A DNA stretch of 64,000 nt from an uncultured candidatus Brocadiaceae bacterium (lineage in GTDB: Bacteria; Planctomycetota; UBA1135; UBA2386): assembly GCA_964483245.1 (NCBI GenBank), contig CAZABP010000011.1:22126-86125 (forward strand), given 5' to 3'. The notes under the pieces were generated by a model. The model saw nothing but the letters and a program-made list of their open reading frames with translations. It was not told the origin of the DNA and ran no database searches. The position numbers and the translations under genes were made by a program. Of the stretch, positions 7,901 through 57,440 are shown piece by piece (the first letter of the stretch is position 1; each line of letters begins with the position of its first letter).

Positions 7901-7988
7901 GGGCGCCGCGGATGATCCCGGGCAGGAATTCCCGGTCAATCCCGATCGTTGCCCGCGCACCCTCCGACCGGGATCCTCCGCCGCTGAC

Positions 7989-19522: not shown

Positions 19523-20478
19523 TTGACCAGCCGCGCGACTTCGACGTGGTTCGGACGGCCGTCCCCGTCGTCGAACACCAGCGCGAGCCGCAACAGGATC
19601 AGCCGGCCGGTCGCCGGACCGTCCCACTTGACCTCGAAGCCGCCCGGAAACTGACGGTCCGCCTTGGCATAGCGTGGCACCGCGAGACCCGGCAGCGCCG
19701 CGCCGTTGCGCGCCAGCGCGACGCGGCGCAGCCCGAGCAGCGAGTCGCGGCATTCCTCCGGTTGGGCCGGGATCTTCTCCGTGCTCTCCATCCGGATCAG
19801 CTCGCCGGAGCTCTCGAACCGCCACAGCGCCTGCGCGACCGGCTGGTCGACTTCGAGCGCGTGTTGCACGCCCTGCTGCAGCAGGCGCAGGCCGACCGCG
19901 GCACGTCGGTTCGGATCGACGACGTTGGCGAGGTCGCTGTGGTTGGCGAACGGCACGCTGCACCAGCGCCGCAGATCGAGGCCGCGACTGGTGTCGGCGG
20001 CGTGGTACAGCACGAACCGGAACAGGTCGACGCGCACGACGTCCGGCGTGAGTCCGGGCGGATTCAGCTCGGCGAGGCAGACGCCGGCACTGCGCACGAC
20101 GAACAGCATGTTGCCGGTCTCGACGACGGTCGGCGGATCCTGGTCGAAGTAGCCGCGGTCGCACAGCAACGGCAGCCGGCTCCCGGTCAGCAGCTCGCTC
20201 TGGTTCCAGTCGAGCCGTGCGAGGTATGCCTGCGACGTGGTGCCGTAGCCGAACACCCGATCAGCCAGTGCGGCGTCCGCTTCGAGCGCACGGGCGACTC
20301 CGTCGGCGACGGCTGCCACGTGCGCCTGCCCGCGCGTGTGGGCCTGCGTGCGCGACAGCTGCGCCAGCGAGCTGACGATCAACACCGACAGCACGAAGAT
20401 CAGACAGACCGCGAACCCGATCTCGGTCAGCGAGATCCCGCACTCGGGATCCAGTCGGCCTTCCGCGCGGGGCTTCAT
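19516..20478 (-). CDS. Pseudopilin-like protein (prepilin-type N-terminus, GspJ/PilW-like size)
   Basis: N-terminus ...ECG/ISLTEIGFAVCLIFVLSVLIV has the class III signal pattern (G, then E at +5, then a hydrophobic helix). ATGA overlap with the upstream giant gene. Confidence 0.7.
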   Translation of the reverse strand: MKPRAEGRLDPECGISLTEIGFAVCLIFVLSVLIVSSLAQLSRTQAHTRGQAHVAAVADGVARALEADAALADRVFGYGTTSQAYLARLDWNQSELLTGSRLPLLCDRGYFDQDPPTVVETGNMLFVVRSAGVCLAELNPPGLTPDVVRVDLFRFVLYHAADTSRGLDLRRWCSVPFANHSDLANVVDPNRRAAVGLRLLQQGVQHALEVDQPVAQALWRFESSGELIRMESTEKIPAQPEECRDSLLGLRRVALARNGAALPGLAVPRYAKADRQFPGGFEVKWDGPATGRLILLRLALVFDDGDGRPNHVEVARLVNQ

Positions 20479-23400
20479 CGCGTGATCAGGAACCGGGTCT
20501 GGTGGAAGCCGACGTGCAGGCGGCGCGTCACGTCGTGGCAGTCGATGCGCAGCAGGTAGTCGCCGGCCGGCGTCTGCTCGACCGGGGGCGACCAGACATA
20601 GGTCTCGGTCCCGGTCGCCGCATCCGGCAAGACCAGCGACGGCTCGCTCGGACGCACCCCCGGAGTGGCGTCGCTGCCACCCAGGACGTGACGCCAGGTC
20701 GCACCTTCGTCGTTCGAATACATCGGGACGTAGACGAGATCCGCTTCCGGCTCACTGAAACCGCCGGGATATGCGCTCGTGTACGGCTGCCCGTCGAACC
20801 GCACGGAGCGCACGTTCCAGCGCAGTGCGATCGACGTCGGTCGTGCCAGCACGGCGCCGAGCACCGGCTGATCGACGCTGACGAGCGGCAACTGCGAGAC
20901 CCGGTGCTCCGGTTCGATCCCCGGCGCGCCGGCGCGATGCTGCGCGCGCACGGCGCCGAGCAACGCGCTCCGCAGCACTGCCGTGTCCTCTTCGCCGCTG
21001 CGCGGCGTGCAGCCCTGCAGCACGTAGTAACCACTGCTCAGCTCGTCCGGGTCGGCGACGCGCACGATCGCAGCGCCGGCCAGCGGCGACGAGTAGTCGT
21101 ACAGCGTCTCGAGCAGCGTCAGCTCGGCGCGCGGATAGCTGTCGGTGAAACCGAAGTGCGGCAGCGCACCCGGGTACGGCAGCTCGATGCCGAACGGCAG
21201 TCCCGTGCGCAACGACGGCGCCGCGACCGTGCGCGCCGCAGTGGCGATCTCCTGCATCGCCAGCGCCGGCGCCGACGTCACTTCGTCCCCGACGCTGTAC
21301 TGCACCAACGTCGCCGCGAGGGTTCCGCCGCCGAGCAGCGAGACCGCGCCAGCCTGACCGGCGGTCGCGCCGCCCGGCGTCGCATCGAAGCTGGTGCCAC
21401 GCGCGAGCGCATACGACGGCAGCTCGGCGCGCAGCATCCTCCGGTAGTCCGGCACTGGCAGCGTGCCGGTCTCGATCCACGTCGCCGACTGTGAGTCCGG
21501 CCAGAGCTCACCGAGCCAGGGCTTCGCCCAGAACTCCTGCCAGCCATCGCGGTCGGCAACCAGCTGGTCGCCGTACAGGACCCCCGCGCCGTACCCGACC
21601 AGCGTTTCGGCCGGCGTCACACTGTCGACGAGCACCGGATCCTCCTGGCCGAACAGCGGACCGGCGAGCGCCAGCGGGCGTACGGCGAGTCCAGGACCGT
21701 CACCCGGGAGGCAGAGTTCGCCGCCGAGCAGCAACGCACTGCCGGCTGCCCCGGCCGGCTGCACGAACACCGATTGCGATCTCGCCAACAGCCGTCGCAG
21801 CAGCAGGTGGTAGCGCGGCTGGTCGGCGCGGTTGCCGGCACCGAACCCATCCGCGAGCCGGGCCGCATCGAACGCGGGCCAATCGATGGTCGCGTTCGTC
21901 GCACCATCCCGCAGGTCGTCGAAGTGCCAGTTGTAGCCGTGCGGGAACGTCCCTCCGCCAGACACGAGATCGGCGTACGGGTTGTGCCGTGGATCGCCGA
22001 GCCACTGGTACTGCTCCGTCACCGGCACGACGGCCGGCGAGCCGGCCCACCAGGCATAGGTCGTCGACAGGTTCGCCGGCGCATACGGCGTCGGCCAGAC
22101 CCGGCCAGTCGTGACGTCGCTGCCGATCCGCGTCGTGACCGTCACCATCGTGTCGACGTCGTTCCATTGGCCCCCAGGGAAGCCGCTCTGGAACACGCCG
22201 CGCGGGATCCGGATCCGCCAGCGCGCGGTGTTCTTCGGCTGCGTCCCGGCCGTGGCCAGATCACGCGTGAACGCGCCGCCGGCGACGACCGGGGAGGGGA
22301 TGTACTCGAGCAGGTACGGACGCTCTTGGGCCGTGAGCCCACCGACACCGACCGGCGGCGCCGTCAGTGGCGTGTTGTGCAGCCGGATCCACGTGTGAGG
22401 AACGGCACCGGTGTCGTCGTAGCCGACCTCGTAGTACATCCCGTATGGCTGCACCGGTGCCTTCGGCGGCAAGCCGCTGCTGCTGTCGAACCCGGCATAG
22501 TCGCGGTCCCCGCCGGACGCGAGGCCGGTCAACGGCGACACCCCGCCGACGAGACGGCGGATCTCGAGTGTTGCCGGCAGCAGCGGCTCATCGACGCCGT
22601 TGACGTTGCGCGACAGGTCGAAGCCGGGGATGCACAGCGTGATCGGTGACGACATCACCGCCGGACCGGTCGCCGCATCGCTCTTGTAGGCGTAGACGCG
22701 CAGCTCGAGCGGCTCGGTGTCGGCGTGGTCGTCGTTGCCGTCCGGATCGCGCGGTGTGCACAGCCGGGCCGGATGCGTGACGACGCGCACGCCGGGGTGC
22801 AGCGTCGGATCCCGCGCGGCGTCGGAGTAGTTGCGCAGTGGTGGCATCGCGAGTGCGTCGCCGTGCAGGTTGACGAAGATTGCGTTGCGGAACCGCTCCG
22901 GCTGCGCGCCGAGCTGGTCGAGCAGGATCTGCAACGGCGGCTGCTCCGGATCCTCCAGGCCGGCTTCGACGCGGCGGCCGAACAGCTCGTGCGCCGCCGG
23001 CGAGCGCAGGCAGTGGTTCCACCGGTCGGCGATCGCGTGCGGCCACGGCCGCGCCGAGGCGTCGTAGTCGTTGCGCAACTCACCGTCGACGCGCAGGCGG
23101 CCGGTGAACAGGTCCGGATCGAACAGCCTGCTCCCACCCGGCTCGAGCGTGCCGGGATACCAGTAGGCCGACGGCGCCGATTCCGACGCCGCGGCGGCGA
23201 GGTTCAGGTCCGGGACGTACAGCGGATCGCGCCCATAGCCGAGCCGCGTGATCCAGTGCAGCCGCAGCCGCAACGATGGCGACGTGCTGGTCAGCTCGTT
23301 CGCCGCCGCCTCGAGGGTGGTGCGCAGCGTGGCGATGTCGCGCCAGGCCGACGGCACTTCGCCGCAGGCAAGCACGTAGACGTCGAACTCGTGCACGGCC

Positions 23401-23888
23401 GGCGACGCCGGCGGCACGACGTTCAGGATCCCGCTGACGCTGGCCATCAGCTCGACCGTGCCGGCCGGCTGACTGTGCCAGACGCGCACATGGCCGACGC
23501 GCATCCGGGGCTGCATCGGCACCTCCTCGATGCCGATTGCGCGCCGCCACAGCCAGTCGCCACCGCGCAGCAGGTTGCCGGACATCGGGTGGTCCGGCGG
23601 GAGCACCAGGCCTGCTTCGTCGCGCAGCGTCGTCAGGACCGGATTGCGCGCAGCACCGTCGTCGAGGTCGTGCAGATCCTGGGCGTCGCGGATCGAACCG
23701 CGCTCGATCCCGGCCTGCAGCTCGGCGAGGATCCCCATCGCCTTCTGCCAGGCGAACATCCGGTTCTCGTTGATCTCGGTGTCGCGGTAGCTGAGCGACA
23801 GCTGCTGCAGCAGCACGAGCAGCGCGATGCCGACGATCGACACCGCGATCACGAGCTCGACGATCGTCGTTCCGTGCGCGCGCTTCAT
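20475..23888 (-). CDS. Giant (1137 aa) protein with prepilin-type N-terminal methylation/cleavage motif; remainder has no recognised domain
   Basis: Start at MKRAHG/TTIVELVIAVSIVGIALLVLL (ATG 23888, 4 nt after the upstream stop). The ORF-track extension to 24005 is rejected. Protein-like composition rich in W/Y/P/G throughout. Confidence 0.75.
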   Translation of the reverse strand: MKRAHGTTIVELVIAVSIVGIALLVLLQQLSLSYRDTEINENRMFAWQKAMGILAELQAGIERGSIRDAQDLHDLDDGAARNPVLTTLRDEAGLVLPPDHPMSGNLLRGGDWLWRRAIGIEEVPMQPRMRVGHVRVWHSQPAGTVELMASVSGILNVVPPASPAVHEFDVYVLACGEVPSAWRDIATLRTTLEAAANELTSTSPSLRLRLHWITRLGYGRDPLYVPDLNLAAAASESAPSAYWYPGTLEPGGSRLFDPDLFTGRLRVDGELRNDYDASARPWPHAIADRWNHCLRSPAAHELFGRRVEAGLEDPEQPPLQILLDQLGAQPERFRNAIFVNLHGDALAMPPLRNYSDAARDPTLHPGVRVVTHPARLCTPRDPDGNDDHADTEPLELRVYAYKSDAATGPAVMSSPITLCIPGFDLSRNVNGVDEPLLPATLEIRRLVGGVSPLTGLASGGDRDYAGFDSSSGLPPKAPVQPYGMYYEVGYDDTGAVPHTWIRLHNTPLTAPPVGVGGLTAQERPYLLEYIPSPVVAGGAFTRDLATAGTQPKNTARWRIRIPRGVFQSGFPGGQWNDVDTMVTVTTRIGSDVTTGRVWPTPYAPANLSTTYAWWAGSPAVVPVTEQYQWLGDPRHNPYADLVSGGGTFPHGYNWHFDDLRDGATNATIDWPAFDAARLADGFGAGNRADQPRYHLLLRRLLARSQSVFVQPAGAAGSALLLGGELCLPGDGPGLAVRPLALAGPLFGQEDPVLVDSVTPAETLVGYGAGVLYGDQLVADRDGWQEFWAKPWLGELWPDSQSATWIETGTLPVPDYRRMLRAELPSYALARGTSFDATPGGATAGQAGAVSLLGGGTLAATLVQYSVGDEVTSAPALAMQEIATAARTVAAPSLRTGLPFGIELPYPGALPHFGFTDSYPRAELTLLETLYDYSSPLAGAAIVRVADPDELSSGYYVLQGCTPRSGEEDTAVLRSALLGAVRAQHRAGAPGIEPEHRVSQLPLVSVDQPVLGAVLARPTSIALRWNVRSVRFDGQPYTSAYPGGFSEPEADLVYVPMYSNDEGATWRHVLGGSDATPGVRPSEPSLVLPDAATGTETYVWSPPVEQTPAGDYLLRIDCHDVTRRLHVGFHQTRFLITR

Positions 23889-23892
23889 CGGC

Positions 23893-25113
23893 TCACCGCA
23901 TCGGACTCGTGGCGCGCCGGGACAGCCGATAGCGCCCGGCAGCGGCACGCACGTGGTCGACGGCGCTGCGCGCGTACTCGAGCACGACGTCCCCGGTGCT
24001 GCCAAAGCCGGCGAACTGCGCGGCGCCGGCGACGATCATCGACCCCTTCAGGGAGAACGGTCCGCGCACATCGGCGTTGCCACCGACGTAGACGATCCCC
24101 TGCAGGTGCACGTCGCTGCCGGCCGGCACGCTCAGGTTGCCGCCGACGATCAGCAGGATCGGGCCGTCGGTCTGCAGCGGGCGGTCGAGCGTCAGGTCTC
24201 CCTGGACGTAGACGACCTGGCCGGAGCGGTAGTCCGAACGGAAACGCTGACCCGGCAGATACGTGTAGTCGCTGAAGTTGCGCAGCCGGTCGAGACGCAT
24301 GCCGAACACCTGATCCGGCGCGAGCTTGATCGTGTTGTTGATCACCTTGGACGGCGTGCCGGAGACGAGTCCGACCAGCACGTCGAGCAGGCCGAGCGTG
24401 TTGCGGATCGCGACGTAGCCGGGCTTGTCGCCGCCGCGGATATCGCCCCGCAGCCCGACCGACAGGTTGGCGACGTCGTCGATGATCAGCGGAGCCTCGG
24501 CCGGCATCGTGATCGGGATCCCGCGCATCTCGGATTGCAGCGCCGACGCCGCTATCAGGCGGTTCGGGGCCTGGTCGAACGAACGGTTCGGATCCTCGCG
24601 CTGGTAGACGTAGCCGCGCGCGCGCAGCTGCCAGGCCGATCCGGCCGTCGTGGCGCCGCGCTCGGCGGAGATGTCGAGCACCTCTTCGAGCCGCACCTCG
24701 TAGCGCCCCCACAGGCCGCTGTGCACTTCGAACTCGCGCACGAGCCCGAGCGTCGGATCCAACGTGTCCAGCAGGGGCGGGTCTGCCTCCGGCTCGAGTT
24801 GCGGGCGGAACTCGACGACCGGCTGCGTGGGTTGCCGCGCGAACCAGCCGAGCGCATCCGTCAGGCCGGAGCGCGCAAACGTCGCTGACAGCGTCTGCTG
24901 CCGGTAGCGCGCATCGATGTCCTTGCGGTTCGCGGCCAGGAATGCCGTGTGCGAGATGATCATCCCGCACGTGATGATCACGAACAGCATCGCCCAGACC
25001 AGCGCGCTGCCGCGCTGCGCCCGGGGGCGTGGCACGCGGACCTCGGGCCTCGAGTCGGTTGACGCCGGCTGCGATCGGCCGCGGCCGGATCGGTACGGAG
25101 AGGGCGCGTGCAT
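23893..25113 (-). CDS. GspK/PilX-type minor pseudopilin-like protein (about 406 aa)
   Basis: QRGSALVWAMLFVIITCGMII matches the GspK / PilX_N N-terminal pattern (qRG.AL...L, no Glu5). Start at ATG 25113 or GTG 25035. The C-terminus is beta-helix-like (GQVVYVQGDLTLD...ILLIVGGNLSV...QGIVYVGGNADV). Confidence 0.65.
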   Translation of the reverse strand: MHAPSPYRSGRGRSQPASTDSRPEVRVPRPRAQRGSALVWAMLFVIITCGMIISHTAFLAANRKDIDARYRQQTLSATFARSGLTDALGWFARQPTQPVVEFRPQLEPEADPPLLDTLDPTLGLVREFEVHSGLWGRYEVRLEEVLDISAERGATTAGSAWQLRARGYVYQREDPNRSFDQAPNRLIAASALQSEMRGIPITMPAEAPLIIDDVANLSVGLRGDIRGGDKPGYVAIRNTLGLLDVLVGLVSGTPSKVINNTIKLAPDQVFGMRLDRLRNFSDYTYLPGQRFRSDYRSGQVVYVQGDLTLDRPLQTDGPILLIVGGNLSVPAGSDVHLQGIVYVGGNADVRGPFSLKGSMIVAGAAQFAGFGSTGDVVLEYARSAVDHVRAAAGRYRLSRRATSPMR

Positions 25114-25199
25114 GCGGATCCGAACGCGGCTATCGAATGCGGCGGCCGATGACTTGAGGGATTCCGCGACAGGAAGTCCGGATCGGTAGAGAAACGCCG

Positions 25200-25230
25200 C
25201 AGCCGCTGTCTCAGAACGGAACAGCGGCTG
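25200..25230. promoter_or_regulatory. Perfect 10-bp inverted repeat (cagccgctgt-N11-acagcggctg) in a divergent promoter region
   Basis: Read directly. Lies between the pseudopilin operon start (25113, minus) and the NUDIX-MBL gene start (25268, plus). Confidence 0.35.
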
Positions 25231-25267
25231 GCAATCGGTCCGCGGCCGTCCCAAGATCCCGCGCCCG

Positions 25268-26773
25268 ATGAACCGCGACGCAGCCGCTGTGATGGTCGTC
25301 CGCGGGCATGGTGCCGCGCGCGAGGTCCTGCTGGTCGAGCGCAGCCCGGAGCTGCGGTTCTTCGGCGGGTATCTCGCGTTCCCCGGCGGGGTCTGCGGGC
25401 CGGACGACCGGGAGCATGCCGGGGTCCACGACGCCCTCCGCCTGTGCGCGGTGCGCGAGCTGTTCGAAGAGACCGGCATCCTGCTGCCCGGCAGCCGCGT
25501 TCCGGCCGCCGAACGCGACCGGCTGCGGCGGGCGCTGGTCGGCGCGCGGGAGACGCCAGCTCCCGCCGCGGTGACCGAGTTCGCCAACGCGGCGCAGCAC
25601 GCCGCCGCGGCACCCGCCCTGCGCGAGATCTGCCGCATCCGCACGCCGCCGTTCGCGCCGGTCCGCTACGACACGCTGTTCCTGTTGCACGAGCTGCCCG
25701 AAGGGGAGACGCCGGAGATCTGGCCCGGCGAGCTCGTCGGCGGCCGGTTCTGGACCCCGGCTGCGGCGCTCGCTGCGTGGCGCCGCGGCGAGCTGCTGAT
25801 CGTGCCGCCGGTATTGATCCTGCTCGAGCTGCTCGGCGAGCGGGGCCTGGACGAGTTCGTCGCGGCGGCGCAGGCGACCGCTGCGCGCTACGACGCCGGT
25901 GACCTGCACCGCGTGCAGTTCACACCCGGCGTCGTGCTGGCCAGCATCCGCACGCCGACGTTGCCCCCCGCGACGACGACGAACTGCCTGATCGTCGGCA
26001 CCGGGCAACTCGTCATCGTCGATCCCGGTGCGCCGGATCCGGACGAGCAGGCACGGCTGTACCGGCTGCTCGACGAGCTGCAGTCCGCAGGTGCGCGCCT
26101 CGAGGCGATCCTGCTGACGCACCACCACCGCGACCACGTCGGCGCCGTGCACGCGTTGAGCCAGCGGTACGAGCTGCCGGTGCACGCGCATGCGCTGACG
26201 CTCGGCCGCCTCGCCCCCGGATTCCGCCGCGGGCGCGCGCTCGAGGACGGGGCGCGGATCCCGCTCGGGTGCGCGCCGGACGGCAGCGACGGTTGGCACC
26301 TGCAGGCGATCTTCACGCCGGGGCACGACCGCGGCCATCTGTGCTACCGCGAGAGCCGGTACGACGCCGTGCTGGTCGGCGACATGCTCTCGACGATCTC
26401 GACGATCGTCATCGATCCGCCGGAGGGGCACATGGCGACGTACCTGCAGAGCCTGGACCGTCTGCTGCAGGAGCCGATGGGCACGCTGTATCCGGCACAT
26501 GGTCCGGCGATGCGCGACGGGCACCGGCTGGTCGATCAGTACCTGCGCCACCGCCGCCAGCGGGAAGCGCATCTGGTGCGCGCACTCGCGGGCGGACCGC
26601 GGTCGCTCGAAGCGCTGCTGCCGGAGGTCTACTGGGACGTGGACGCAAAGATGCACGGCATCGCCGCGCGCTCGCTGCGCGCCGGGCTCGAGAAGCTGGT
26701 CGAGGAAGGGATCGCCGAGCACGCGGAGGGGTTCTGGCAGCTCGGACCGCGCGCGCCGGCGGAGGGGGCGTGA
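25268..26773 (+). CDS. NUDIX hydrolase - metallo-beta-lactamase-fold hydrolase fusion protein
   Basis: N-terminal Nudix box (...FPGGVCGPDD...AVRELFEETGI). C-terminal MBL motif LLTHHHRDHVGAV plus a downstream His/Asp ligand (FTPGHDRGH). Confidence 0.85.
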   Translation: MNRDAAAVMVVRGHGAAREVLLVERSPELRFFGGYLAFPGGVCGPDDREHAGVHDALRLCAVRELFEETGILLPGSRVPAAERDRLRRALVGARETPAPAAVTEFANAAQHAAAAPALREICRIRTPPFAPVRYDTLFLLHELPEGETPEIWPGELVGGRFWTPAAALAAWRRGELLIVPPVLILLELLGERGLDEFVAAAQATAARYDAGDLHRVQFTPGVVLASIRTPTLPPATTTNCLIVGTGQLVIVDPGAPDPDEQARLYRLLDELQSAGARLEAILLTHHHRDHVGAVHALSQRYELPVHAHALTLGRLAPGFRRGRALEDGARIPLGCAPDGSDGWHLQAIFTPGHDRGHLCYRESRYDAVLVGDMLSTISTIVIDPPEGHMATYLQSLDRLLQEPMGTLYPAHGPAMRDGHRLVDQYLRHRRQREAHLVRALAGGPRSLEALLPEVYWDVDAKMHGIAARSLRAGLEKLVEEGIAEHAEGFWQLGPRAPAEGA

Positions 26774-26938
26774 GCTGAGTTGCAACGGCGCAGGATCGTC
26801 GCGGAGGATCCGCAGGCGGAGCAGCGCCAAGGACGCAGGCAGCGTGGCGAGCGTCGCGACGTCGACCGGAAAGCCCGCGTACGGCTCATTCGTTGCAGCC
26901 CTCGGGTCGCGCTGCCATCACCCGCAGTGCAAGCGGCG

Positions 26939-29900
26939 CTACTTGCGCCACACCCACCAGGTACGCAGCCATGACAGCCGCAGCCACAACCACAACCATG
27001 GACCCCGCCGCCAACCGAACTGGGCAGCAACTGCCCGCACGAGCCGAGGCTTGCACCGGCGCAGGATCCACGTCGGCGCGGCCACGATGTCGCGCAGCCG
27101 ACGCCACAGGGTCACCCACTGCGCCGCGCCGCGCACCGCGCTGAAAGCGAGCCAGGCATCGACGCAGGCCGCAAGCAGCCGCGCCTCCTGGCTCAGCAAC
27201 TCGATCCTGACTAGTGCGTGATGCATCCGGGCTGCCTCCAGGTCCGCGATCAGCAGCGCTTCGATCGCAAGCCACACGCGGTGCTCCGACAACGAGTCGT
27301 CCGCTCGCCGCTCGACTGCCACGGCGGACACCGCACGTGCCTCGTCCCAGCGTCCGCCCACGCGCAGCGCCGTTGCGACGTTGTGCAGGACCCACTGCTC
27401 GGCCTCCGCGCGCCGGCGCCAGTCCGAGCAGAACGTGAGCGCATCCCCGGTGCCGAGCGCGAGCAGCGCGTACAGTACCAGGCCGAGCGTCCCATCGTCG
27501 GCACGCCACATCGACTCCGGGAACGCGGCGAGCACGCGCGCCAACCGCCGCCGGCGGGCCCGACTCGTAGGGCCGGTACCAAGCCAGCCGAGCAGCCGCT
27601 GTGCACCGGCGTGCCACGCGGCCGGACGGGCTGACAAATGGCGGAGCGCGGCGATCGCGGCGTCGGCGTCGCTGGCCTTGCCCAGTGCCTGGCACCAGAT
27701 ACCTGCAATCGCCGCGGGGGCTTCGTCGCGCACTGCCTCCTCCGCCAGCAGCGCCTGGACCGCTGCCAACGAATCGGCCTGTTGCGGCGTCACCTGCAGC
27801 GCCTCGGCCAAGAGCTCGGCCGTCACATCGGGACGGCGACACAGTGCCTGCCAGGTCGACAACACTGCCTGCTCCGTCGTCCCATCCGCCGCAACGCGAC
27901 GGCCGGCAACCATGAGTCGCCACACCAGCCCAGCGGCGTCGCACTGGGCGCCCAGCCAGCGGTCGACCACCGCATCGGCCGCGTCGAGCTCGCCGTTCTC
28001 GAGGTGCAGGTCGAGCAAGCTCTTCGCCGCGTAGCCATAGCACGGCGCGAGCGACAGCGCCTGTGCGAAGGCCTCCTTCGCCGCAGCGCGCTGGCCTATG
28101 GCGAGGCGCGTCGCGCCGAGCCAGCCGAATGAGACCGCGTCCGCCGGCGCGTGGTCCACCAGCGCCTGCGCCTCGTCGACTGCAGCTTGGCGGTCGTCAC
28201 TCGCCGACAACCACTCGACGAGCTGTTGCCGTCCCCAGGTGTAGTCCGCGCGCTCGGCGAGGACCGCGCGCATCTCTGCCGACGCGGCCGCGCGGTTGCC
28301 CTTGCGATCGATGAGCCATGCCCGGCGTCCGCGCAGCGTGACCACGAGCGGGCCGGCTGCCGCCACGGCGTCGAGCTCCGCGATCGCTTCGTCGACGCGG
28401 TTGCACTCGGCGAGCAACGCCGCCCGCAAGTCGAGCGCAGTCGCGTTGCGGGCATCGATCTCCAAGCAGCGCGCGAAGGCTGCGAGACGCTGCTCTGGAG
28501 CGGGGAGTCGTACGGCGAACTGGAGCCACGCGACGGCAACCGCATGCTGTTCGACGATCGGGCGTCCGATGCGGTCGAACAGCGCGGGATCAGCTGCCTG
28601 CTGCGCGATCCACTGCAGCATGCCCCACGCGTCGCCACCGGTGACGTCGAGGCCGATTGCAATGGCTGCTTGCGCAGCCGCTCCAGCAGCGTCGCCTGAC
28701 TCGACCAGCGTCTCGCACAGTTGCAGCCGCAGACCGTTGTCGTCGGGGGCGCGCGCCGACATGTCGCGTAACATCGCCAGGGCTCGCGCCGTCTCGCCGC
28801 GTCGGCGCAGCAATGCAGCGAGTGCCCGGCAGGCTTCAGGCGACCACGGCAGCAGCTCGCGTGCGCGCTCGAGTGCAGCCATCTCGGCAGCCTCGTCGCC
28901 GGCCGACCGATGCGCCGCCGCCAGGTCGAGCCACACCCGTGGCAGCAACGGGAAGCGGTCGCACGCGATCTGCGCGGCCGGCAACGCCTCGTCCCCGCGC
29001 TGCATCGCGACGAGCTGCTGGACGACGCAGCCGTGGGCAGCCCAGGAATGCGGATGCAGTTCGAGCAGCCGCCGGAGCTGCACCAGCAACTCCTCCGGTT
29101 CGAGCACGCTGGTGGCGACACCAGCGAACACGACCATCCCGGGGCCATCGCCGGCGCGCGCCGCGAGCCATCCGGCGAGGTCCGCGACCGCCCGCCGCCG
29201 GTCCATTGCCGTCGGTTGCTCCCACACGTAGTTGCCGATCGCGAACGTGCAGTCGACGTCGAGCTGCACTGCTGCGGCGAACGCTGCCAGTGCGTCGGCA
29301 CGGCGACCGAGCTCTTGCAGGACCTTGCCGCGGATCGCGTGGCCGTCCGGCACGTGCGGTTGCAGGTGCACCGCCGCATCCGCCGCAGCCAGCGCAGCTT
29401 CGGGCCGGCTCTGCTCGAGGTGACGCAGCGCCAGTTCGCGCTGCACCAGCGCATCGGAGGGGTCCGCCGCAGCCAGCTCGTCCAGCCGGCGGATCGCGGC
29501 GCGTGTGTCGACGCGCCCCAGCTCGATTGCGAGCAGCCGCGCCGTGGGCCGGTGGAACGGGTATTCCTCCAACACCTGTTGCAGGTGCGCGACCGCAGCC
29601 TGCGGGCCGCCGACGACGCGCAGCAGACGCACGAGCTCGCCGCGTGTTGCTTCCTCGAGCGGATCGTGCTGCAGCGCCTCGAGCCAGTGTCCGCGCGCCG
29701 CGTCGAGGTCGCCGTGGTGCATGGCGAGCCGCGCGTCGGTACGGGACCGTGCCGGCGCGTCACCATGGCCAGCTGCCGCCGTCCGGAGCTCTGCCGCAAC
29801 ATCGAGCCGGCCGTCCGCGCCATGTGCTTCCGCGGCGAACAGGAGCAGCGCGCCGTCTTGCGGCCGCTGCCGCAGCGCTCGTTCGAGCACCACGAAAGCA

Positions 29901-31912
29901 TCCGCTGGCCGGTGCAGCGCCTGCAGCCCGTGGAACAGACTCCGCGCCGGTCCGCCGGCACGGCGGCCGTAGCGCTCGAAGCGCTGCTCGAGCAGCGCGA
30001 TCCCCTCCGCCGTGCGACCGCGGGTGCGGCAGGCCTCGAAGTACTCGAGCGCGGCCGCTTCGTTGGTGTCGTCGAGGCAGACGGCGAAGCGCAGTGCCTG
30101 CAGCGCCTCGTCATCGCACCCGCGCTGCAGGAGCTGGCGGCCGAGCAGGCGGTGACCATGCGCCTCGAGCGGGGCGCGGCGCAGGGCCCGTTCGCACAGC
30201 GCACGCACTTCGACCGCGAACACGCCGTCGGCCTGCAGGAGCCAGGCGAGCTGCAGCAGGAACGCAGGATGCGCGTGCGTGCCTTCGGTCAGCCCACGCA
30301 GCAGCTCGAGGGCCGCATCCCGGCGCTCGAGCTGCGCAAGACACTCGAGCTGCCGCAACAGCAGCCGGCTGTCTTCCGGGAACTGCTCGAGCAACCGCAG
30401 CACGCAGCTCAGCACGCCGACCGCGTCGCGCTCGTACGCGCTGAGCGCGCACTGCGCCTCGATCGCCAACCTGTGCTCAGGATGCCGCTCCGCCAGCTCG
30501 CGGCTGGCGCGACGCGCGGCCGCCCGGTCGTGGCGGGCCAGCGCTTCCTGCACGGCGAACGACTGGTCGTACAGCTCGGAGTCCTGCAGTGCCATGCCGG
30601 CCAGCGCGTCCTCGTGCGGAGCAAGCACCATCGCCCGCGGTCCGCTGGCACGGCAGTGCTGCAGGAACTGCTCCACGAGCCACTCGGTCGTCTGGCGGAC
30701 GAACGGGTCGCGCACGATGAACGTGCCGCGGCGTTCATCGATGCCGATGACCGCCTGCAGATGCCCGCTCGTCGCCTCGCGAGTCGCGACTGCGAACGGC
30801 AGCCCGCGCGCCAGCAGCGCCTTCGCGTCGGCAGCGTTCAGCGTGAACTCGCGGGCGGCGAATCCGTTGCGCAACGCCCAGCGCCGTTCGTTGACATCGG
30901 TCGTACCGCCGTAGCAGATGTCTTCGATGACGTGCAGTTGCTCCGTGGGTCGGCCGTGCCAGAGCGCCAGCGCCGTCAACGTGGCAGGTCCGCAAGTCCG
31001 GTGATGCTGCCGCACGAAGGGCACGGCGAGCTGGATCCGTGCCCCGGTCCCGCTGGCGGCGCGCGCGACGATCTCGCGGTGGAACTCAGAGCCGCTCGCG
31101 GCTGCGTGTGCAGCCGCCTCGCCGTCGCGCGAGAGCTGCAGCAGCAGATCGACCCGGCGCATCGCCAACCGCTTGCTGCCGGATTCATCGAGCAACGGCG
31201 CCAGCGCTTCGAATCGTGCCAGCGTCGCGAACGCGGCCTCCCATTGCCCGTGCTCCTCCTGCTGCAACGCCAGCATCGCCGCCAGCTCGGACGACTCCAG
31301 GCTTGCCAGCGCGTCCTGCAGCAGCCGTTCGGCATCATCGTCGCGGCCGAGCAGCTGCAGCAGGTGCGCCGAGTGCGCCACTGCAGCAACCCGATACGTG
31401 GCAGCCGCGCGCACCGGGCTCACGATCGCCAAGGCCTCGTCGTAGCGATCCTGCAGCTCGAGCACGTTGGCTCGTTCGATCCGCAGCCAAGGATGGTCCG
31501 GCCGCAGCGCCTCAGCCTCCTGCAGGCGCCGCTCCGCCAGCTCGAAGTCTCGCAACGTGCCGGCGATGCGGGCCTCGAGCGCAAGGAGGTCCGCGAGTGC
31601 CTGCGGGTCGTCGCCGCGGCGTGGGCAAGCCAGCATGCGCCACGTGGCCCACGGTCCGTGCCGGCGCAACCGCGCCGCTGCCGCGTAGTAGAGCGCGCAG
31701 TCGCCAGAGTCGGGCTCGCGCATGGCGCGCAGGTGGTGGGTTTCGCCGAGTCTCTGCCCCCCGAGCCTGAGCGCCAGGCGGCCGGCGAGCACGCGCTGCT
31801 CAGCGCCACGCCACTCGGCGAGCGGGGCTACCGAGTCGGCTCGCGCGAGCGCTTGCAGGTACAGGCCGGCGTCGTACAGCGCCTGGACTTCCTGCATTGC
31901 GGCCGATGCCAT
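26939..31912 (-). CDS. Giant TPR-repeat protein (1657 aa) with embedded papain-like/C39-like cysteine peptidase domain
   Basis: Start at MASAAMQEVQALYDAGLY (ATG 31912, 22 nt after the EEP stop). Helical TPR-like repeats throughout. The segment VPFVRQHHRTCGPATLTALALWHG...SGHLQAVIGIDERRGTFIVRDP has the Cys...His...Asp layout of Peptidase_C39_2-type domains. Trp-rich tail ...GPWLWLWLRLSWLRTWWVWRK. Confidence 0.75.
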   Translation of the reverse strand: MASAAMQEVQALYDAGLYLQALARADSVAPLAEWRGAEQRVLAGRLALRLGGQRLGETHHLRAMREPDSGDCALYYAAAARLRRHGPWATWRMLACPRRGDDPQALADLLALEARIAGTLRDFELAERRLQEAEALRPDHPWLRIERANVLELQDRYDEALAIVSPVRAAATYRVAAVAHSAHLLQLLGRDDDAERLLQDALASLESSELAAMLALQQEEHGQWEAAFATLARFEALAPLLDESGSKRLAMRRVDLLLQLSRDGEAAAHAAASGSEFHREIVARAASGTGARIQLAVPFVRQHHRTCGPATLTALALWHGRPTEQLHVIEDICYGGTTDVNERRWALRNGFAAREFTLNAADAKALLARGLPFAVATREATSGHLQAVIGIDERRGTFIVRDPFVRQTTEWLVEQFLQHCRASGPRAMVLAPHEDALAGMALQDSELYDQSFAVQEALARHDRAAARRASRELAERHPEHRLAIEAQCALSAYERDAVGVLSCVLRLLEQFPEDSRLLLRQLECLAQLERRDAALELLRGLTEGTHAHPAFLLQLAWLLQADGVFAVEVRALCERALRRAPLEAHGHRLLGRQLLQRGCDDEALQALRFAVCLDDTNEAAALEYFEACRTRGRTAEGIALLEQRFERYGRRAGGPARSLFHGLQALHRPADAFVVLERALRQRPQDGALLLFAAEAHGADGRLDVAAELRTAAAGHGDAPARSRTDARLAMHHGDLDAARGHWLEALQHDPLEEATRGELVRLLRVVGGPQAAVAHLQQVLEEYPFHRPTARLLAIELGRVDTRAAIRRLDELAAADPSDALVQRELALRHLEQSRPEAALAAADAAVHLQPHVPDGHAIRGKVLQELGRRADALAAFAAAVQLDVDCTFAIGNYVWEQPTAMDRRRAVADLAGWLAARAGDGPGMVVFAGVATSVLEPEELLVQLRRLLELHPHSWAAHGCVVQQLVAMQRGDEALPAAQIACDRFPLLPRVWLDLAAAHRSAGDEAAEMAALERARELLPWSPEACRALAALLRRRGETARALAMLRDMSARAPDDNGLRLQLCETLVESGDAAGAAAQAAIAIGLDVTGGDAWGMLQWIAQQAADPALFDRIGRPIVEQHAVAVAWLQFAVRLPAPEQRLAAFARCLEIDARNATALDLRAALLAECNRVDEAIAELDAVAAAGPLVVTLRGRRAWLIDRKGNRAAASAEMRAVLAERADYTWGRQQLVEWLSASDDRQAAVDEAQALVDHAPADAVSFGWLGATRLAIGQRAAAKEAFAQALSLAPCYGYAAKSLLDLHLENGELDAADAVVDRWLGAQCDAAGLVWRLMVAGRRVAADGTTEQAVLSTWQALCRRPDVTAELLAEALQVTPQQADSLAAVQALLAEEAVRDEAPAAIAGIWCQALGKASDADAAIAALRHLSARPAAWHAGAQRLLGWLGTGPTSRARRRRLARVLAAFPESMWRADDGTLGLVLYALLALGTGDALTFCSDWRRRAEAEQWVLHNVATALRVGGRWDEARAVSAVAVERRADDSLSEHRVWLAIEALLIADLEAARMHHALVRIELLSQEARLLAACVDAWLAFSAVRGAAQWVTLWRRLRDIVAAPTWILRRCKPRLVRAVAAQFGWRRGPWLWLWLRLSWLRTWWVWRK

Positions 31913-31934
31913 CGGGCCGCGTAGTGCACCGGCT

Positions 31935-32636
31935 CTACCGGCGCGGTTCCAGGATCGTCTCCAGCGGCAGATGGTCCGACAGTTGGTCCCAGGGCGGCCC
32001 GCACAGCACGCGCACTTCGCGCACTGCGAAGCCACGCACGTAGATCCGGTCCAGCGGCAGCATCGGACGCCGCGCCGGGAAGCTGCGCCGTGCGCGGGGC
32101 GGCACCTCCCACAGCACGTTGCGCAGCCCCGGGATCCGCCGCGCGCGGCGGTCGAGCGCGCCGGACCAGTCGTTGAAGTCGCCGCCGGCGACGACCGGCA
32201 CATCCAGGTCCGCCGGCAGCGCCTCGAGCAACCGCTCCCACTGCCGGCGGCGCTGCCGGCCGGTCAGGCTGAAGTGCACGTTCAGCACCTCGAACGGACC
32301 GTGCTCCCCGGCGAACCAGGTGCGCAGCATCCCACGCCGCTCGATCATCGACTGCGTGATGTCGACATTGACGAAGCGCGCCGCCTGCAGGCGGCTGAAC
32401 GTCGCGTTGCCATAGCAGCCCTGCGGCCGGAACACGTTCGGGCCGAACACGTGGCTGAGCCCCAGCGTCTCGCTGATGTGCGCGCACTGCAGCACCGCCT
32501 CGCGGGCGCCATGGAACACTTCCTGGCACAGCACGAGATCCGGCGCGCGCTCGGCGATCGCCGCGATCGCAGCCTCGAGGATGCTCTGCCGCGCGCGGCC
32601 GATGCCCTTGTGCAGGTTGTAGGTGATGACCTTCAC
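31935..32636 (-). CDS. Endonuclease/exonuclease/phosphatase (EEP) family protein (YbhP-like)
   Basis: MKVITYNLHKGIG...DLVLCQEV...GGDFNDW...LSDHLPL are EEP family motifs. 4-nt overlap with the cls stop. Confidence 0.85.
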   Translation of the reverse strand: MKVITYNLHKGIGRARQSILEAAIAAIAERAPDLVLCQEVFHGAREAVLQCAHISETLGLSHVFGPNVFRPQGCYGNATFSRLQAARFVNVDITQSMIERRGMLRTWFAGEHGPFEVLNVHFSLTGRQRRRQWERLLEALPADLDVPVVAGGDFNDWSGALDRRARRIPGLRNVLWEVPPRARRSFPARRPMLPLDRIYVRGFAVREVRVLCGPPWDQLSDHLPLETILEPRR

Positions 32637-34096
32637 AGCAGCGGCGAGAGCAGACGGGCGAAGCCTTCCAACGTGCGGGTCCAGAGTCCGCGCGGCAGAT
32701 CCTGGATCTTCAGCCAGACGCCGCGGGCAGCGCGGCGTGCCAGCATCGCGCGCGCCTGCTGCTGCAGCGGCGAACGGTACAGCACGACGCCGAGCTCGAA
32801 GTTGAGCTCCGTGCTGCGCACGTCCAGGTTGTTGCTGCCGCAGTACAGATACTCGTCGTCGACCAACACGAGCTTGCTGTGGTTGTAGTCACCGAGCGTC
32901 TCGTGCACGCCGATCCCGTGGCGCAGCATGTCGCGCACGTGGCTGCGCTGCGCCAGGTACAGCAGCGGGTTCTCCGCCTGGCGGCCGTTGGTCTGGATGC
33001 GCGTGTCGACACCACGCGCGACGGCCATTTCGAGCGCGGTCATGACGGTCGGGTGCGGCACGAGGTACGGCGCGTTGACCAGCAGGTCCTTCTGCGCGCG
33101 CGCGATCAGCTCGAGCATGCACCAGTGCATCAGGCTGGCGCGCGTGTCCGGCCCGCCCTGGACGACGCCGACGATCTCGTCCCCGACTGCCGGCTGCTCC
33201 GGGAAGTACCTCTTGTCGCAGAGGTCTTCGTCGCTGGCGTTGTACCAGTCCTCGACGAACGTCCGGTGGATCCGCGTCACCGCCGGGCCTTCGACGGTGA
33301 CCATCGTGTCGAACCATTCGTGGCGCGCGCCGAACCTGCCGGTGAAGTACTCATCGGCGATGTTGCGCCCGCCGAGGAACGAGAGGCGCCCATCGACGAC
33401 GAGCTGCTTGCGGTGGTTGCGCAGGTTCAGGTTGAACCAGCGCCGCCGCCACAACAGCGGCGCGTACGGTGCCGAGCGGCCCCCGGCCGCGTGGAATTCC
33501 TCGAGGTGCCGTGACTTCAACGACCAGCTGCCGAAGCTGTCGTAGATCAGCCGCACTTCGAGCCCGCGCCTGGCGGCGGCGGTCAGCAGCTCGAGGAACC
33601 GCAGGCCGGCGCGGTCCGGCCGCAGGATGTAGGTCTGCACGTGCACGAACTGCTTCGCCGACGCGATCGCGGCCGCCGCCGCCTGCACGAACTCCTGCGG
33701 CCCTTCGAGCAGCCTGACGCGGTTGCCGCCATGCACCGCGTCCTCGTCGACGCGCTGCAGCATCCGCAGCAGCGGATCGTCGTACTGCGGCCGCTCGGTC
33801 GGCGCCGCGAACATCTCTGCGAGCGTCGGTTCGATCCAGGCATTGCGATTGCAGACCCGCTGCAGACGCCGCAGCTGGATCTGCCGCGGCATGACGTAAT
33901 AGAACAGCAGTCCCACGTATGGGAACGCCAGGATGAACAGGCTCCAACTGATCGTGACGGCAGTCGACTTGCCGGTCTGGATCGCGCGCAGCACGAACAG
34001 GATCGACAGCAGCTCGCCGACCAGCGCGACCAGCAGCGGCAGGCGCAGGTCGAGGCCGCCGGAAGCCGCCTGATCGAGGAACGCAGCGATGGGCAT
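32633..34096 (-). CDS. cls: Cardiolipin synthase (PLD superfamily, two HKD motifs)
   Basis: N-terminal TM helices. HKD motifs NHRKQLVVDGRLSFLGGRNI and YNHSKLVLVDDEYLYCGSNNLD. Start at MPIAAFLDQ (ATG 34096). Confidence 0.88.
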   Translation of the reverse strand: MPIAAFLDQAASGGLDLRLPLLVALVGELLSILFVLRAIQTGKSTAVTISWSLFILAFPYVGLLFYYVMPRQIQLRRLQRVCNRNAWIEPTLAEMFAAPTERPQYDDPLLRMLQRVDEDAVHGGNRVRLLEGPQEFVQAAAAAIASAKQFVHVQTYILRPDRAGLRFLELLTAAARRGLEVRLIYDSFGSWSLKSRHLEEFHAAGGRSAPYAPLLWRRRWFNLNLRNHRKQLVVDGRLSFLGGRNIADEYFTGRFGARHEWFDTMVTVEGPAVTRIHRTFVEDWYNASDEDLCDKRYFPEQPAVGDEIVGVVQGGPDTRASLMHWCMLELIARAQKDLLVNAPYLVPHPTVMTALEMAVARGVDTRIQTNGRQAENPLLYLAQRSHVRDMLRHGIGVHETLGDYNHSKLVLVDDEYLYCGSNNLDVRSTELNFELGVVLYRSPLQQQARAMLARRAARGVWLKIQDLPRGLWTRTLEGFARLLSPLL

Positions 34097-34397
34097 GTCC
34101 TGGGAACGCTTGGCGAGGAACGTAGCGGGAGTCCTGATCCTGATCCTCGGGGTGGTCGGCCTGTTCCTGCCGTTCCTGCAAGGGATCCTGTTCCTGATGA
34201 TCGGGCTCGCGCTGATCGACCTGCCGATCAAGCACCGCGCACACCGCTCGTTGCGCCAGCGCTACCGCTGGTATCGCGGCCTGTCGCTGCGCTACATGCA
34301 GTTCAAGCGGCGCTGGCGGCAGCGGCGGGCCAGGCAGCGGGAGCTCCGCCGCGCCGCGCGCCAATCGCGCGCCCTCAGCCCCGATCGACGAGCATGA
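34089..34397 (+). CDS. Small membrane protein (PGPGW/DUF454-like), Arg-rich tail
   Basis: Two hydrophobic helices ([32 protein letters not shown]) followed by a basic tail. Divergent from cls with overlapping starts. Confidence 0.45.
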
Positions 34398-35040
34398 TCT
34401 CCCCCAAAGGCTTGCGCGTCAGCGCGAGCCGCGGGACCACACAGTCCGCTGCCGGATGGCCGACCGGCACCAACAGGAACGGCCGTTCCTGCTCCGGACG
34501 GCCGAGGATCCGGTTCAGGAACTTCATCGGGCTCGGCGTGTGCGTCAGCGCGACCAGCCCGGCGTGGTGGATCGCGGCCAGCAGGAACCCGGCCGCGATC
34601 CCGGCCGACTCCTGGACGTAGTAGACCTGCCCGTCGTCGTCGTCCTTCATCAGCCGGAACAGCACGATCAGCCACGGCGCGACTTCGAGGAACGCCTTGT
34701 CGGCGTCAGTGCCGAGCGGCTCGAGATCGGCGAGCCAGCGCGCGCTGGCGCGGTGCGCATAGAACTCGCGCTCCTCGGCCTCGGCCGCGAGCCGGATCTC
34801 CCGCTTCAACGCGGGGTCCTGCACGCAGGCGAACCGCCACGGCTGCTTGTTGGCGCCGCTCGGCGCCGACCCGGCGGTCCGCACGATCCATTCGATCGTT
34901 TCGCGCGCGACCGGCTCGTCGCGGAACATGCGCACCGAGCGGCGCGTGCGCATGACCTCGTAGAACGCGCGCGCCGCCTCGGCGGGCGGCGCATCGGGCC
35001 GGTAGCGCTCGGGAAGCGGCACGAAGCGGGCGTCGGTCAC
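34375..35040 (-). CDS. Nitroreductase family protein
   Basis: [38 protein letters not shown] is the canonical nitroreductase opening motif. Confidence 0.85.
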
Positions 35041-37314: not shown

Positions 37315-41862
<4,548 letters not shown>

Positions 41863-41992: not shown

Positions 41993-42319
41993 ATGACGCG
42001 ACACGAGTGCCGGATTGCGTCGCTGCGGAGCATGTTGGTGCTCCTGTCGTGGGCGGCGGCGTCAGGAGCGTGCGCGACGGTGGTCGGCACGGCGGCCTCC
42101 CCGGTCTCGTCGGTCGTCGAGTTCGTCGACGAATGGCACCCGACCGAGTGGTGGCAGTACGCCGTCGCTCCGTTCGGATTTGTGATGTACGTCGGGCTGA
42201 GTCCGGTGCTGGCCGCAGTCAAGGGTGTGGAGGCGGACATCGGGTTCGTGCGCAACGGCAACTACGAAGATCCGCCGTTCGGCCAGGTGTTCACCCCGTG
42301 GGCCGGGGTAGGTCACTGA
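41993..42319 (+). CDS. Small lipoprotein (108 aa), unknown function
   Basis: Lipobox: MLVLLSWAAASGAC. Trp/Tyr/Phe-containing mature part. Bracketed by the repeat family. Confidence 0.6.
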   Translation: MTRHECRIASLRSMLVLLSWAAASGACATVVGTAASPVSSVVEFVDEWHPTEWWQYAVAPFGFVMYVGLSPVLAAVKGVEADIGFVRNGNYEDPPFGQVFTPWAGVGH

Positions 42320-43610: not shown

Positions 43611-43655
43611 GCCGGCAGTCTAGACCGGTGTGCCGGACCTGCGACCGGGTGCGGC

Positions 43656-55164: not shown

Positions 55165-55324
55165 CGCGCGTCCCCGCCGCCCCACCGCCGCTTCCGCGCC
55201 CACCGGCAACCGCCACAAACTCGGGACAGCCGTACACAACGCGGCGACCCGCGCGCGCCGATGAGGTCCGTATCCTTGGCCACCTTCCGTGTGGGCGTCC
55301 GCCGCACGGGGGCAACCGACGACC

Positions 55325-57433: not shown

Positions 57434-57440
57434 GGTCACG

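Follow-up and report, generated by a model that had tools for sequence, protein, structure and literature searches.

A conserved cardiolipin synthase module and a giant TPR/C39-peptidase gene, probably a recent insertion, adjoin one another in an uncultured planctomycete

Does a very large repeat protein with an embedded peptidase domain, encoded directly behind a cardiolipin synthase gene and its partner, belong with them to one membrane-lipid system, or do two independent units lie next to each other? The question is raised by a locus of an uncultured candidatus Brocadiaceae bacterium (assembly GCA_964483245.1, contig CAZABP010000011.1), from which we analysed 64,000 nucleotides (nt) as one continuous stretch (positions 22,126 to 86,125 of the forward strand; hereafter the window, in whose own numbering all coordinates are given). 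A preliminary description of this DNA had singled out three genes, which lie on its minus strand: a cardiolipin synthase gene, cls (32633-34096, 487 amino acids (aa)), a gene of the endonuclease/exonuclease/phosphatase family, here EEP (31935-32636, 233 aa, GTG start), and a gene for a 1657-aa protein built of tetratricopeptide repeats (TPRs) and a C39-type peptidase domain, here the giant (26939-31912). It had read them as one operon for a scaffold-protease tied to phospholipid remodelling. All three open reading frames (ORFs) were verified at these positions and on this strand, the EEP start overlapping the cls stop by 4 nt and a spacer of 22 nt separating the EEP stop from the start of the giant ORF. 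The comparisons described below point instead, and we hold this to be the likely explanation, to two independent units side by side, a conserved phospholipid module and a recent insertion of the single giant gene, and not to a new lipid-remodelling system.

Long spurious ORFs are common in the window, where the G+C content is ~70%, and codon-position base composition failed to discriminate the giant gene from an antisense ORF at 28910-31924. As this measure was uninformative, the strand of the giant gene was settled by homology, the gene being recognised by matches to Pfam TPR families and Peptidase_C39_2 and by its homologues. Its public annotation begins at the second ATG (31897), 15 nt downstream of the start used here, and gives a protein of 1652 aa.

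The clearest evidence on the relationship between the genes came from a 17-kb metagenomic contig (L090), whose Cls falls in the same 90%-identity cluster as the window Cls. Gene order in L090 is that of the window (histidine kinase, extracytoplasmic function (ECF) sigma factor, PDZ protein, nitroreductase, small membrane protein gene, cls, EEP), and the convergent gene for a NUDIX/metallo-beta-lactamase protein (NUDIX-MBL), which forms the boundary of the locus in the window (25268-26773, plus strand, identified by Pfam), follows there directly after EEP, with the two stop codons 28 nt apart. By blastn the contig was 98.7% identical to the window over 43644-31938 and 99.2% identical over 26773-21437, and where the window has 5,164 nt (26774-31937) L090 has 37 unrelated nt. 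This strain-specific segment begins with the EEP stop codon and the 22-nt spacer and ends, beyond the giant gene, in 165 nt of 3' spacer. The alignment breaks off precisely at 31938 on one side, where the last sense codon of EEP lies, and at 26773 on the other, where NUDIX-MBL has its stop codon. The EEP of L090 is two codons longer than that of the window (235 aa, ending RRPG), and a 235-aa allele ending RQPG was also found in an independent JGI sample (P0133). The 5.16-kb insert would have taken the place of the final two codons and the stop codon of EEP and of the short spacer in front of the convergent NUDIX-MBL gene.

The flanks of window and L090 beside the junction are nearly free of mismatches. 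No long repeats flank the 5,164-nt segment (direct repeats reach 10 nt and inverted repeats 8 nt at most), and neither a recombinase nor another mark of a mobile element was found at the insert junction. Mismatches between the two sequences are clustered elsewhere, in the hybrid histidine-kinase gene at 37500-39499 (23, 22 and 46 per 500 nt) and in the bin 42500-42999 within the sigma-factor/DUF6596 gene at 42291-43619 (22), against at most 10 per 500 nt in the remaining bins, which suggests recombination tracts or fast-evolving segments.

A further relative, with an EEP 81% identical to that of the window, shows the order ECF sigma factor, 173-aa gene, PDZ protein, small membrane gene on the opposite strand, cls and EEP, with a convergent gene 5 nt past EEP and no giant. 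Considering L090 and this relative, the absence of the giant looks ancestral and the giant itself looks like a recent gain. The opposite history, in which the giant was ancestral at this locus and was lost by deletion from the other strain and the relatives, could draw on the fact that the alleles differ by replacement and not by a clean insertion, and that sequence alone gives no direction; we nevertheless regard it as very improbable. The giant-less arrangement was found in three sources (with EEPs 99%, 97% and 81% identical), whereas the giant-bearing arrangement was seen in the window genotype only, and the nearest homologue of the giant is just 57% identical and stands in a different context, with a DUF4351 fragment upstream and a protein kinase gene downstream. 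Nothing within the 5,164 nt corresponds to the 37 nt of the other allele, and the giant has both the lowest G+C content at third codon positions (GC3, 0.841) among 22 window genes and the worst codon fit, with a log-likelihood of -0.985 per codon compared with -0.64 to -0.90 for the other 21.

Gene neighbourhoods in other genomes also separate the giant from cls and EEP. Neither cls nor EEP was found near the giant in any of 85 other giant-family loci, for which up to 10 kb was fetched on each side (less on short contigs); 82 of the compared loci, from 80 species genomes and two planctomycete assemblies, were tested against the window Cls and EEP, and one myxobacterial locus gave a weak, unrelated match to the phospholipase D (PLD) family. 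Conversely, the giant gene was absent from all 86 other EEP loci (80 metagenomic and 6 closer), most of which have cls. A genome that encodes homologues of both (GCA_041398565.1) has a 52%-identical EEP without cls and carries the giant homologue on a different contig. The linkage of three genes that the preliminary description had extended into one system is thus not conserved in either direction, nor is it kept in the ~99% identical strain or in the 81% relative. No family-wide partner of the giant emerged either, as no cluster of flanking ORFs occurred in more than 15 of 83 loci. Within individual clades the giant does have recurrent neighbours: in 13 loci of acidobacterial type the gene immediately upstream, on the same strand, is a DUF6016 gene (for example L010, 9165-9914), and a methyltransferase gene together with an M48 peptidase gene lies upstream in two relatives 40-41% identical (L002, 7369-9922; L084, 7332-9898). 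These clade-local neighbours could hint at function within those clades.

It is against these comparisons that a single functional operon has to be judged, in which cls, EEP and giant would act together and a membrane-tethered scaffold-protease would process or regulate the lipid enzymes or a lipid-dependent substrate. The three genes share a strand, the spacer is as short as 22-37 nt with no terminator-like site within it, the tail of the giant is strongly membrane-seeking and Cls is a membrane enzyme; moreover, the sequence that the insert brought upstream of the giant is too short for a promoter of its own, which makes co-expression with cls and EEP likely. Such an operon is nonetheless most unlikely, given that the giant is missing at the same locus in a nearly identical strain and in the 81% relative, that none of the 85 giant loci and none of the 86 EEP loci joins the two units, that giant and EEP homologues occupy different contigs in a genome having both, and that the codon usage of the giant is atypical for the window. 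The giant would probably be expressed by read-through from the cls-EEP promoter, since no more than 22-37 nt upstream of it came with the insert. Neither the EEP/giant junction nor the 3' spacer gave RNA folds better than those of shuffled sequence.

Several points weigh against the view that two independent units were brought together recently. Both alleles have unique junction sequence (37 versus 5,164 nt), which makes the event a replacement, and its direction, a gain in the window, therefore rests on parsimony and codon bias. Support for the giant-less allele comes from assembled metagenomes, namely a Logan contig, a JGI contig and, without DNA, the 81% relative, rather than from closed genomes. 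A scan found neither a terminator-like nor a sigma-70-like site between EEP and the giant, in agreement with the one-operon reading, although the consensus used was of the E. coli type and means little in a planctomycete of 70% G+C. From the 4-nt overlap and the spacing only, we infer that EEP is translationally coupled to cls; co-transcription of cls, EEP and giant is likewise likely from their spacing, though it would be accidental as a partnership. A protease with a membrane tail, placed behind a membrane-lipid operon, could also be retained because its co-expression is useful. Substrate, activity and localisation of the giant family, finally, are predictions throughout, drawn from sequence and structural models.

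The first of the two units is recognised by its domains. The window Cls has a PLDc_N and two PLDc_2 domains by Pfam, and its two PLD domains carry the two HKD motifs of a PLD-type cardiolipin synthase (H228-K230-D235 in HRKQLVVD at 228, and H406-K408-D413 in HSKLVLVD at 406). Synthases of this type work by transphosphatidylation, in which two phosphatidylglycerols, or phosphatidylglycerol and another phospholipid, give cardiolipin. The protein matched the model TIGR04265 from end to end with 279.4 bits, just under the cut-off of 290, and scored 150 bits against the ClsB model NF008427, whose cut-off is 281; on these sequence matches it is best described as a Cls-family enzyme without assignment to a subtype. 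An N-terminal membrane anchor of the ClsA type is present, with PLDc_N at residues 30-68 and hydrophobic 19-residue windows from residue 15 to about 70. Matches of cls to DrmC in a PADLOC scan reflect generic PLD similarity.

The EEP is matched over its full length by PF03372 (E 7e-18) and is 31% identical to E. coli YbhP, also over the full length (239 aligned columns, E 2e-28); it scores below the cut-offs of the NCBIfam PRK05421 models. The catalytic residues of the EEP fold are present, and the motif residues N7, E39, H121, D153, N155, D221 and H222 were invariant among 28 orthologues, which are mostly planctomycetal. The EEP would most likely serve as a phosphodiesterase or phosphatase, with a lipid head group or a by-product as its substrate.

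A third gene accompanies the pair. A small membrane protein of the PGPGW family (34089-34397, plus strand, 102 aa, with an alternative start at 34095) is encoded divergently from cls, and its match to PF09656 (E 3.9e-5) barely exceeds the cut-off of that family. Start codons of this gene and of cls overlap, which leaves zero intergenic space for a promoter of either gene. A 95-aa gene is called at the same position, divergent from cls, both in L090 and in the 81% relative; a PGPGW homologue is divergent from cls in L087 and co-directional with it, just upstream, in L093 (31% identity, E 3e-17). PGPGW membrane protein, cls and YbhP-like EEP are thus a conserved phospholipid module of the E. coli ybhP-clsB kind.

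The analogy with E. coli had been drawn in the preliminary description, and it stood up well: the ybhP-clsB-ybhN gene set is annotated there as that description stated, and the window proteins are 31% (YbhP) and 28% (ClsB) identical to their E. coli counterparts. The E. coli genes have been described as an operon in which the function of YbhP is unknown (10.1101/2022.03.11.483950, PMC9241728). Both organisms combine a PLD-type cardiolipin synthase with a YbhP-family EEP and overlap the two genes by 4 nt. Gene order is reversed in the window, however, with cls preceding EEP, and the window synthase resembles ClsA in its N-terminal membrane helices (PLDc_N), a feature absent from ClsB; the window locus has no YbhN/PplT homologue, and the PGPGW protein is the third conserved member instead.

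Pairing of cls with EEP recurs well beyond these two organisms. Adjacency is kept in L090, the P0134 contig, L087 and L093, and cls lies within 3 kb of EEP in five of the six closer planctomycete contexts. Their arrangement varies: cls-EEP is followed by a GDSL-lipase-like gene in the relative with a 62%-identical EEP, the two genes are about 3 kb apart in the 64% relative, and they are adjacent and divergent in the 58% relative. A metagenome scan with the EEP returned distant homologues only (31-39% identity), and it informs on the generic EEP-cls pairing, not on close relatives; here a same-strand PLD gene adjoined the YbhP-like EEP in 55 of 80 loci, and in 31 of 36 where the locus extended for at least 1.5 kb to each side.

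The second unit, the giant protein, consists of ~17 TPR-like helices, the C39 domain, more than 45 further TPR-like helices and a tail rich in Trp and Arg. An AlphaFold2 model of residues 1-1190 showed this succession of helices, peptidase and helices with a pLDDT (predicted local distance difference test) of 89.5 and a pTM (predicted template modelling score) of 0.82. In Foldseek searches this 1190-residue model matched nothing but generic TPR scaffolds (Ski3, IFT-A subunits, Ctr9 and OGT) at global TM-scores of 0.13-0.24; these, including the TPR domain of OGT, likewise form long solenoids of TPR-like hairpins, a resemblance of class and not of homology.

The peptidase domain (30617-31039, minus strand, residues 292-432) had been anticipated in the preliminary description from its motifs, and these are present in the 1657-aa numbering as QHHRTCGPAT at 302, SGHLQAVIG at 382 and VRDP at 400. 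The position given for it then, residues ~380-540, was wrong for the 1657-aa protein and fits the numbering of a longer ORF of 1754 aa. Peptidase_C39_2 (PF13529) matched residues 295-403 with 27.4 bits, above the Pfam cut-off of 24. The residues Q302 (31007-31009), C307 (30992-30994), H384 (30761-30763) and D402 (30707-30709) were invariant in 33 homologues (28-57% identical to the giant) and also in sets of 27 and 12 sequences, and the concern that the domain might be dead was not borne out.

Searches by sequence were too weak to place the fold, a single-sequence search of the peptidase region against PDB chains giving no match and a profile search against the PDB giving a weak match to 3erv ('putative C39-like peptidase') together with TPR noise, and a predicted structure was therefore required. 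The AlphaFold2 model of residues 262-560 (pLDDT 94.2, pTM 0.90) matched the peptidase domains of ComA, PCAT1 and LahT best in the PDB (target TM-score 0.74-0.75, 17-23% identity), followed by AvrRpt2 (C70) and papain-like toxins. Pfam score, model and PDB matches together identify a C39 fold (clan CA, papain-like alpha/beta), and by conservation and predicted structure the domain looks catalytically active.

Spacing of the Gln, Cys, His and Asp residues in the giant (Q302-C307-H384-D402) is similar to that in ComA, whose catalytic set we take to be Q11-C17-H96-D112. The C39 domains of ComA, PCAT1 and LahT are likewise cytoplasmic and near the membrane, which is the location predicted for the giant. 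Unlike those domains, which belong to ATP-binding cassette (ABC) exporters that mature bacteriocins and peptides for quorum sensing, that of the giant is not fused to an ABC transporter, sits ~290 residues into a 1657-aa TPR array and belongs to Peptidase_C39_2, not to the classical Peptidase_C39 of Pfam. No ABC or transmembrane-domain match was found in the giant by Pfam, and clustering of flanking ORFs at 83 loci revealed neither a leader-peptide gene nor a transporter as a conserved neighbour of the family; without an ABC fusion or partner, the giant resembles a C39 peptidase and not a PCAT-type exporter. A match to the PA2778 family (NF033920) spans the C39-like domain and the helices behind it (residues 296-533, aligned with positions 4-242 of the 255 in the model), but at 39.5 bits, with a cut-off of 150, the giant is not a member; that model has 255 positions compared with the 1657 aa of the giant, and PA2778 itself is uncharacterised. 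TPR-CHAT proteins also place a cysteine protease on a repeat scaffold, the protease of the giant differing in being of clan CA (papain-like C39) and not caspase-like as in CHAT.

The Trp/Leu/Arg tail (26942-27046, minus strand, residues 1623-1657, ending GWRRGPWLWLWLRLSWLRTWWVWRK) is the true C-terminus of the giant. With 8 Trp and 8 Arg+Lys in the last 35 aa it is an extreme case within its family, as the last 35 residues of 116 full-length homologues are basic and 2.3-fold enriched in Trp (2.2 observed versus 0.93 expected). In 19 of these 116 a segment resembling a transmembrane helix replaces or extends the tail, and none has a hydrophobic segment at the N-terminus. The membrane-interactive nature proposed for the tail in the preliminary description is plausible on this composition. 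The giant is probably cytoplasmic, as no N-terminal signal or membrane segment is present, and its Trp/Arg-rich tail would probably anchor it to the inner side of the membrane. Its C39-type cysteine endopeptidase, presumably active, would be surrounded by a scaffold of about 35 TPR hairpins; this scaffold would probably select a protein or peptide substrate and the C39 domain would cut it, as ComA and PCAT1 do in processing Gly-Gly leaders.

The family to which the giant belongs is large. A protein search with the giant gave 266 homologues, and among the 120 listed most are ~1650 aa long and nearly all have PF13529; where a name is given, in a few cases, it is 'tetratricopeptide repeat protein' or 'C39 family peptidase'. 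A profile search with the domain region recovered 999 cluster representatives (clustered at 50% identity) at E <= 1e-30, the domain starting almost always near residue 270, and in a scan of one genome per species 428 stretches encoded a relative of the giant. Relatives are mostly from Planctomycetota, Acidobacteriota (Blastocatellia) and Verrucomicrobiota, with a few from cyanobacteria, Gallionella, Myxococcales and others. Records titled 'Heliomicrobium' or 'Heliobacteriaceae' (L015, L010, L031, L009 and L018) also carry the giant, in a local order like that of acidobacterial loci, and their labels are doubtful. Some cultured strains carry a member of the family (Acaryochloris marina MBIC11017, Chthoniobacter flavus Ellin428, Paludisphaera and Tundrisphaera). 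The preliminary description could not assign the giant to a described system, a statement that needs correction, as by sequence it is a further member of a large family that is already catalogued and unstudied; a literature search with the terms PA2778, C39-like with tetratricopeptide, Peptidase_C39_2 and Planctomycetes found no study of it.

What such a protein might do was considered in two ways. A Gly-Gly pair lies within the last 45 residues, just before the Trp-rich tail, in 51 of the 116 full-length proteins, six-fold more often than in random windows (~8 of 116), and the giant of the window lacks it. The pair is intriguing in view of the C39 peptidases that cleave at Gly-Gly, and it is a speculative thought that giant-family proteins cleave their own tails there, in cis or in trans, and are so released from the membrane. 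Tail self-cleavage and a mobile conflict module are the two readings of a broader proposal, to which we give a small chance: that the ~1650-aa TPR/C39 proteins constitute a class of intracellular processing proteases, tethered to the membrane, that has so far gone unrecognised.

For the second of these readings, a mobile and self-contained conflict gene (an anti-phage or toxin-like protease with the TPR array as its sensor), there is some evidence, and it too appears unlikely. It would explain why the giant comes and goes from strain to strain without fixed neighbours: presence differs between ~99% identical strains, distribution is patchy across Planctomycetota, Acidobacteriota, Verrucomicrobiota and the few cyanobacteria, Gallionella and Myxococcales, no neighbour is conserved, and the closest homologue is preceded in its contig by a DUF4351 fragment. 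A repeat sensor joined to a protease is a known defence layout, seen in TPR-CHAT/Csx29 and in STAND-type proteins. On the other hand, the giant had no match in PADLOC-DB at E <= 0.01, there is no recombinase, repeat or other mobile-element mark at the junction and no conserved NTPase or immunity-like partner, and the neighbouring genes of the window are ordinary metabolic and regulatory genes. The rigid length and architecture of the family (~1650 aa with the domain near residue 270 in ~1,000 clusters) resemble those of a conserved cellular machine more than those of a defence gene under fast evolution. The weakly related C39 protein PA2778, which also speaks for a conflict role, has been listed as a possible candidate toxin of the type VI secretion system (10.1101/733030).

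Further genes were recorded in the window around the locus. The nitroreductase gene (34375-35040, minus strand) stands between the PDZ and small membrane genes in the window and in L090 and is missing there in the 81% relative, a second small difference in gene content of this neighbourhood. Two long ORFs, 20475-24005 (minus strand, 1176 aa) and 23893-25644 (minus strand, 583 aa), have a coding-like GC3 of 0.88 and gave no match in Pfam and PADLOC scans; the former is also kept in L090. A gene for another lipid-active enzyme, a patatin-like phospholipase (7650-10190, plus strand), lies ~22 kb from cls-EEP, and a PSCyt2/PSD1 (DUF1549/DUF1553) gene followed by a DUF1501 gene (55265-58763, plus strand) forms a pair typical of Planctomycetota, which together with the names borne by homologues supports placement in that phylum.

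If two independent units indeed adjoin here, as we consider likely, a tempting false lead is removed, and the link between a scaffold-protease and phospholipid remodelling would be an accident of a recent 5-kb insertion. The PGPGW-cls-EEP unit is now defined and extends the poorly understood ybhP-clsB pairing of E. coli to distant bacteria, and the recurrence of cls with EEP strengthens the case for YbhP-type enzymes working with cardiolipin synthases. The giant family is large, rigidly built and confidently modelled, and is open to direct study in its cultured carriers. Either self-cleavage at the tail or a role as a conflict module would, if true, be new biology, and neither depends on the cls-EEP neighbours.

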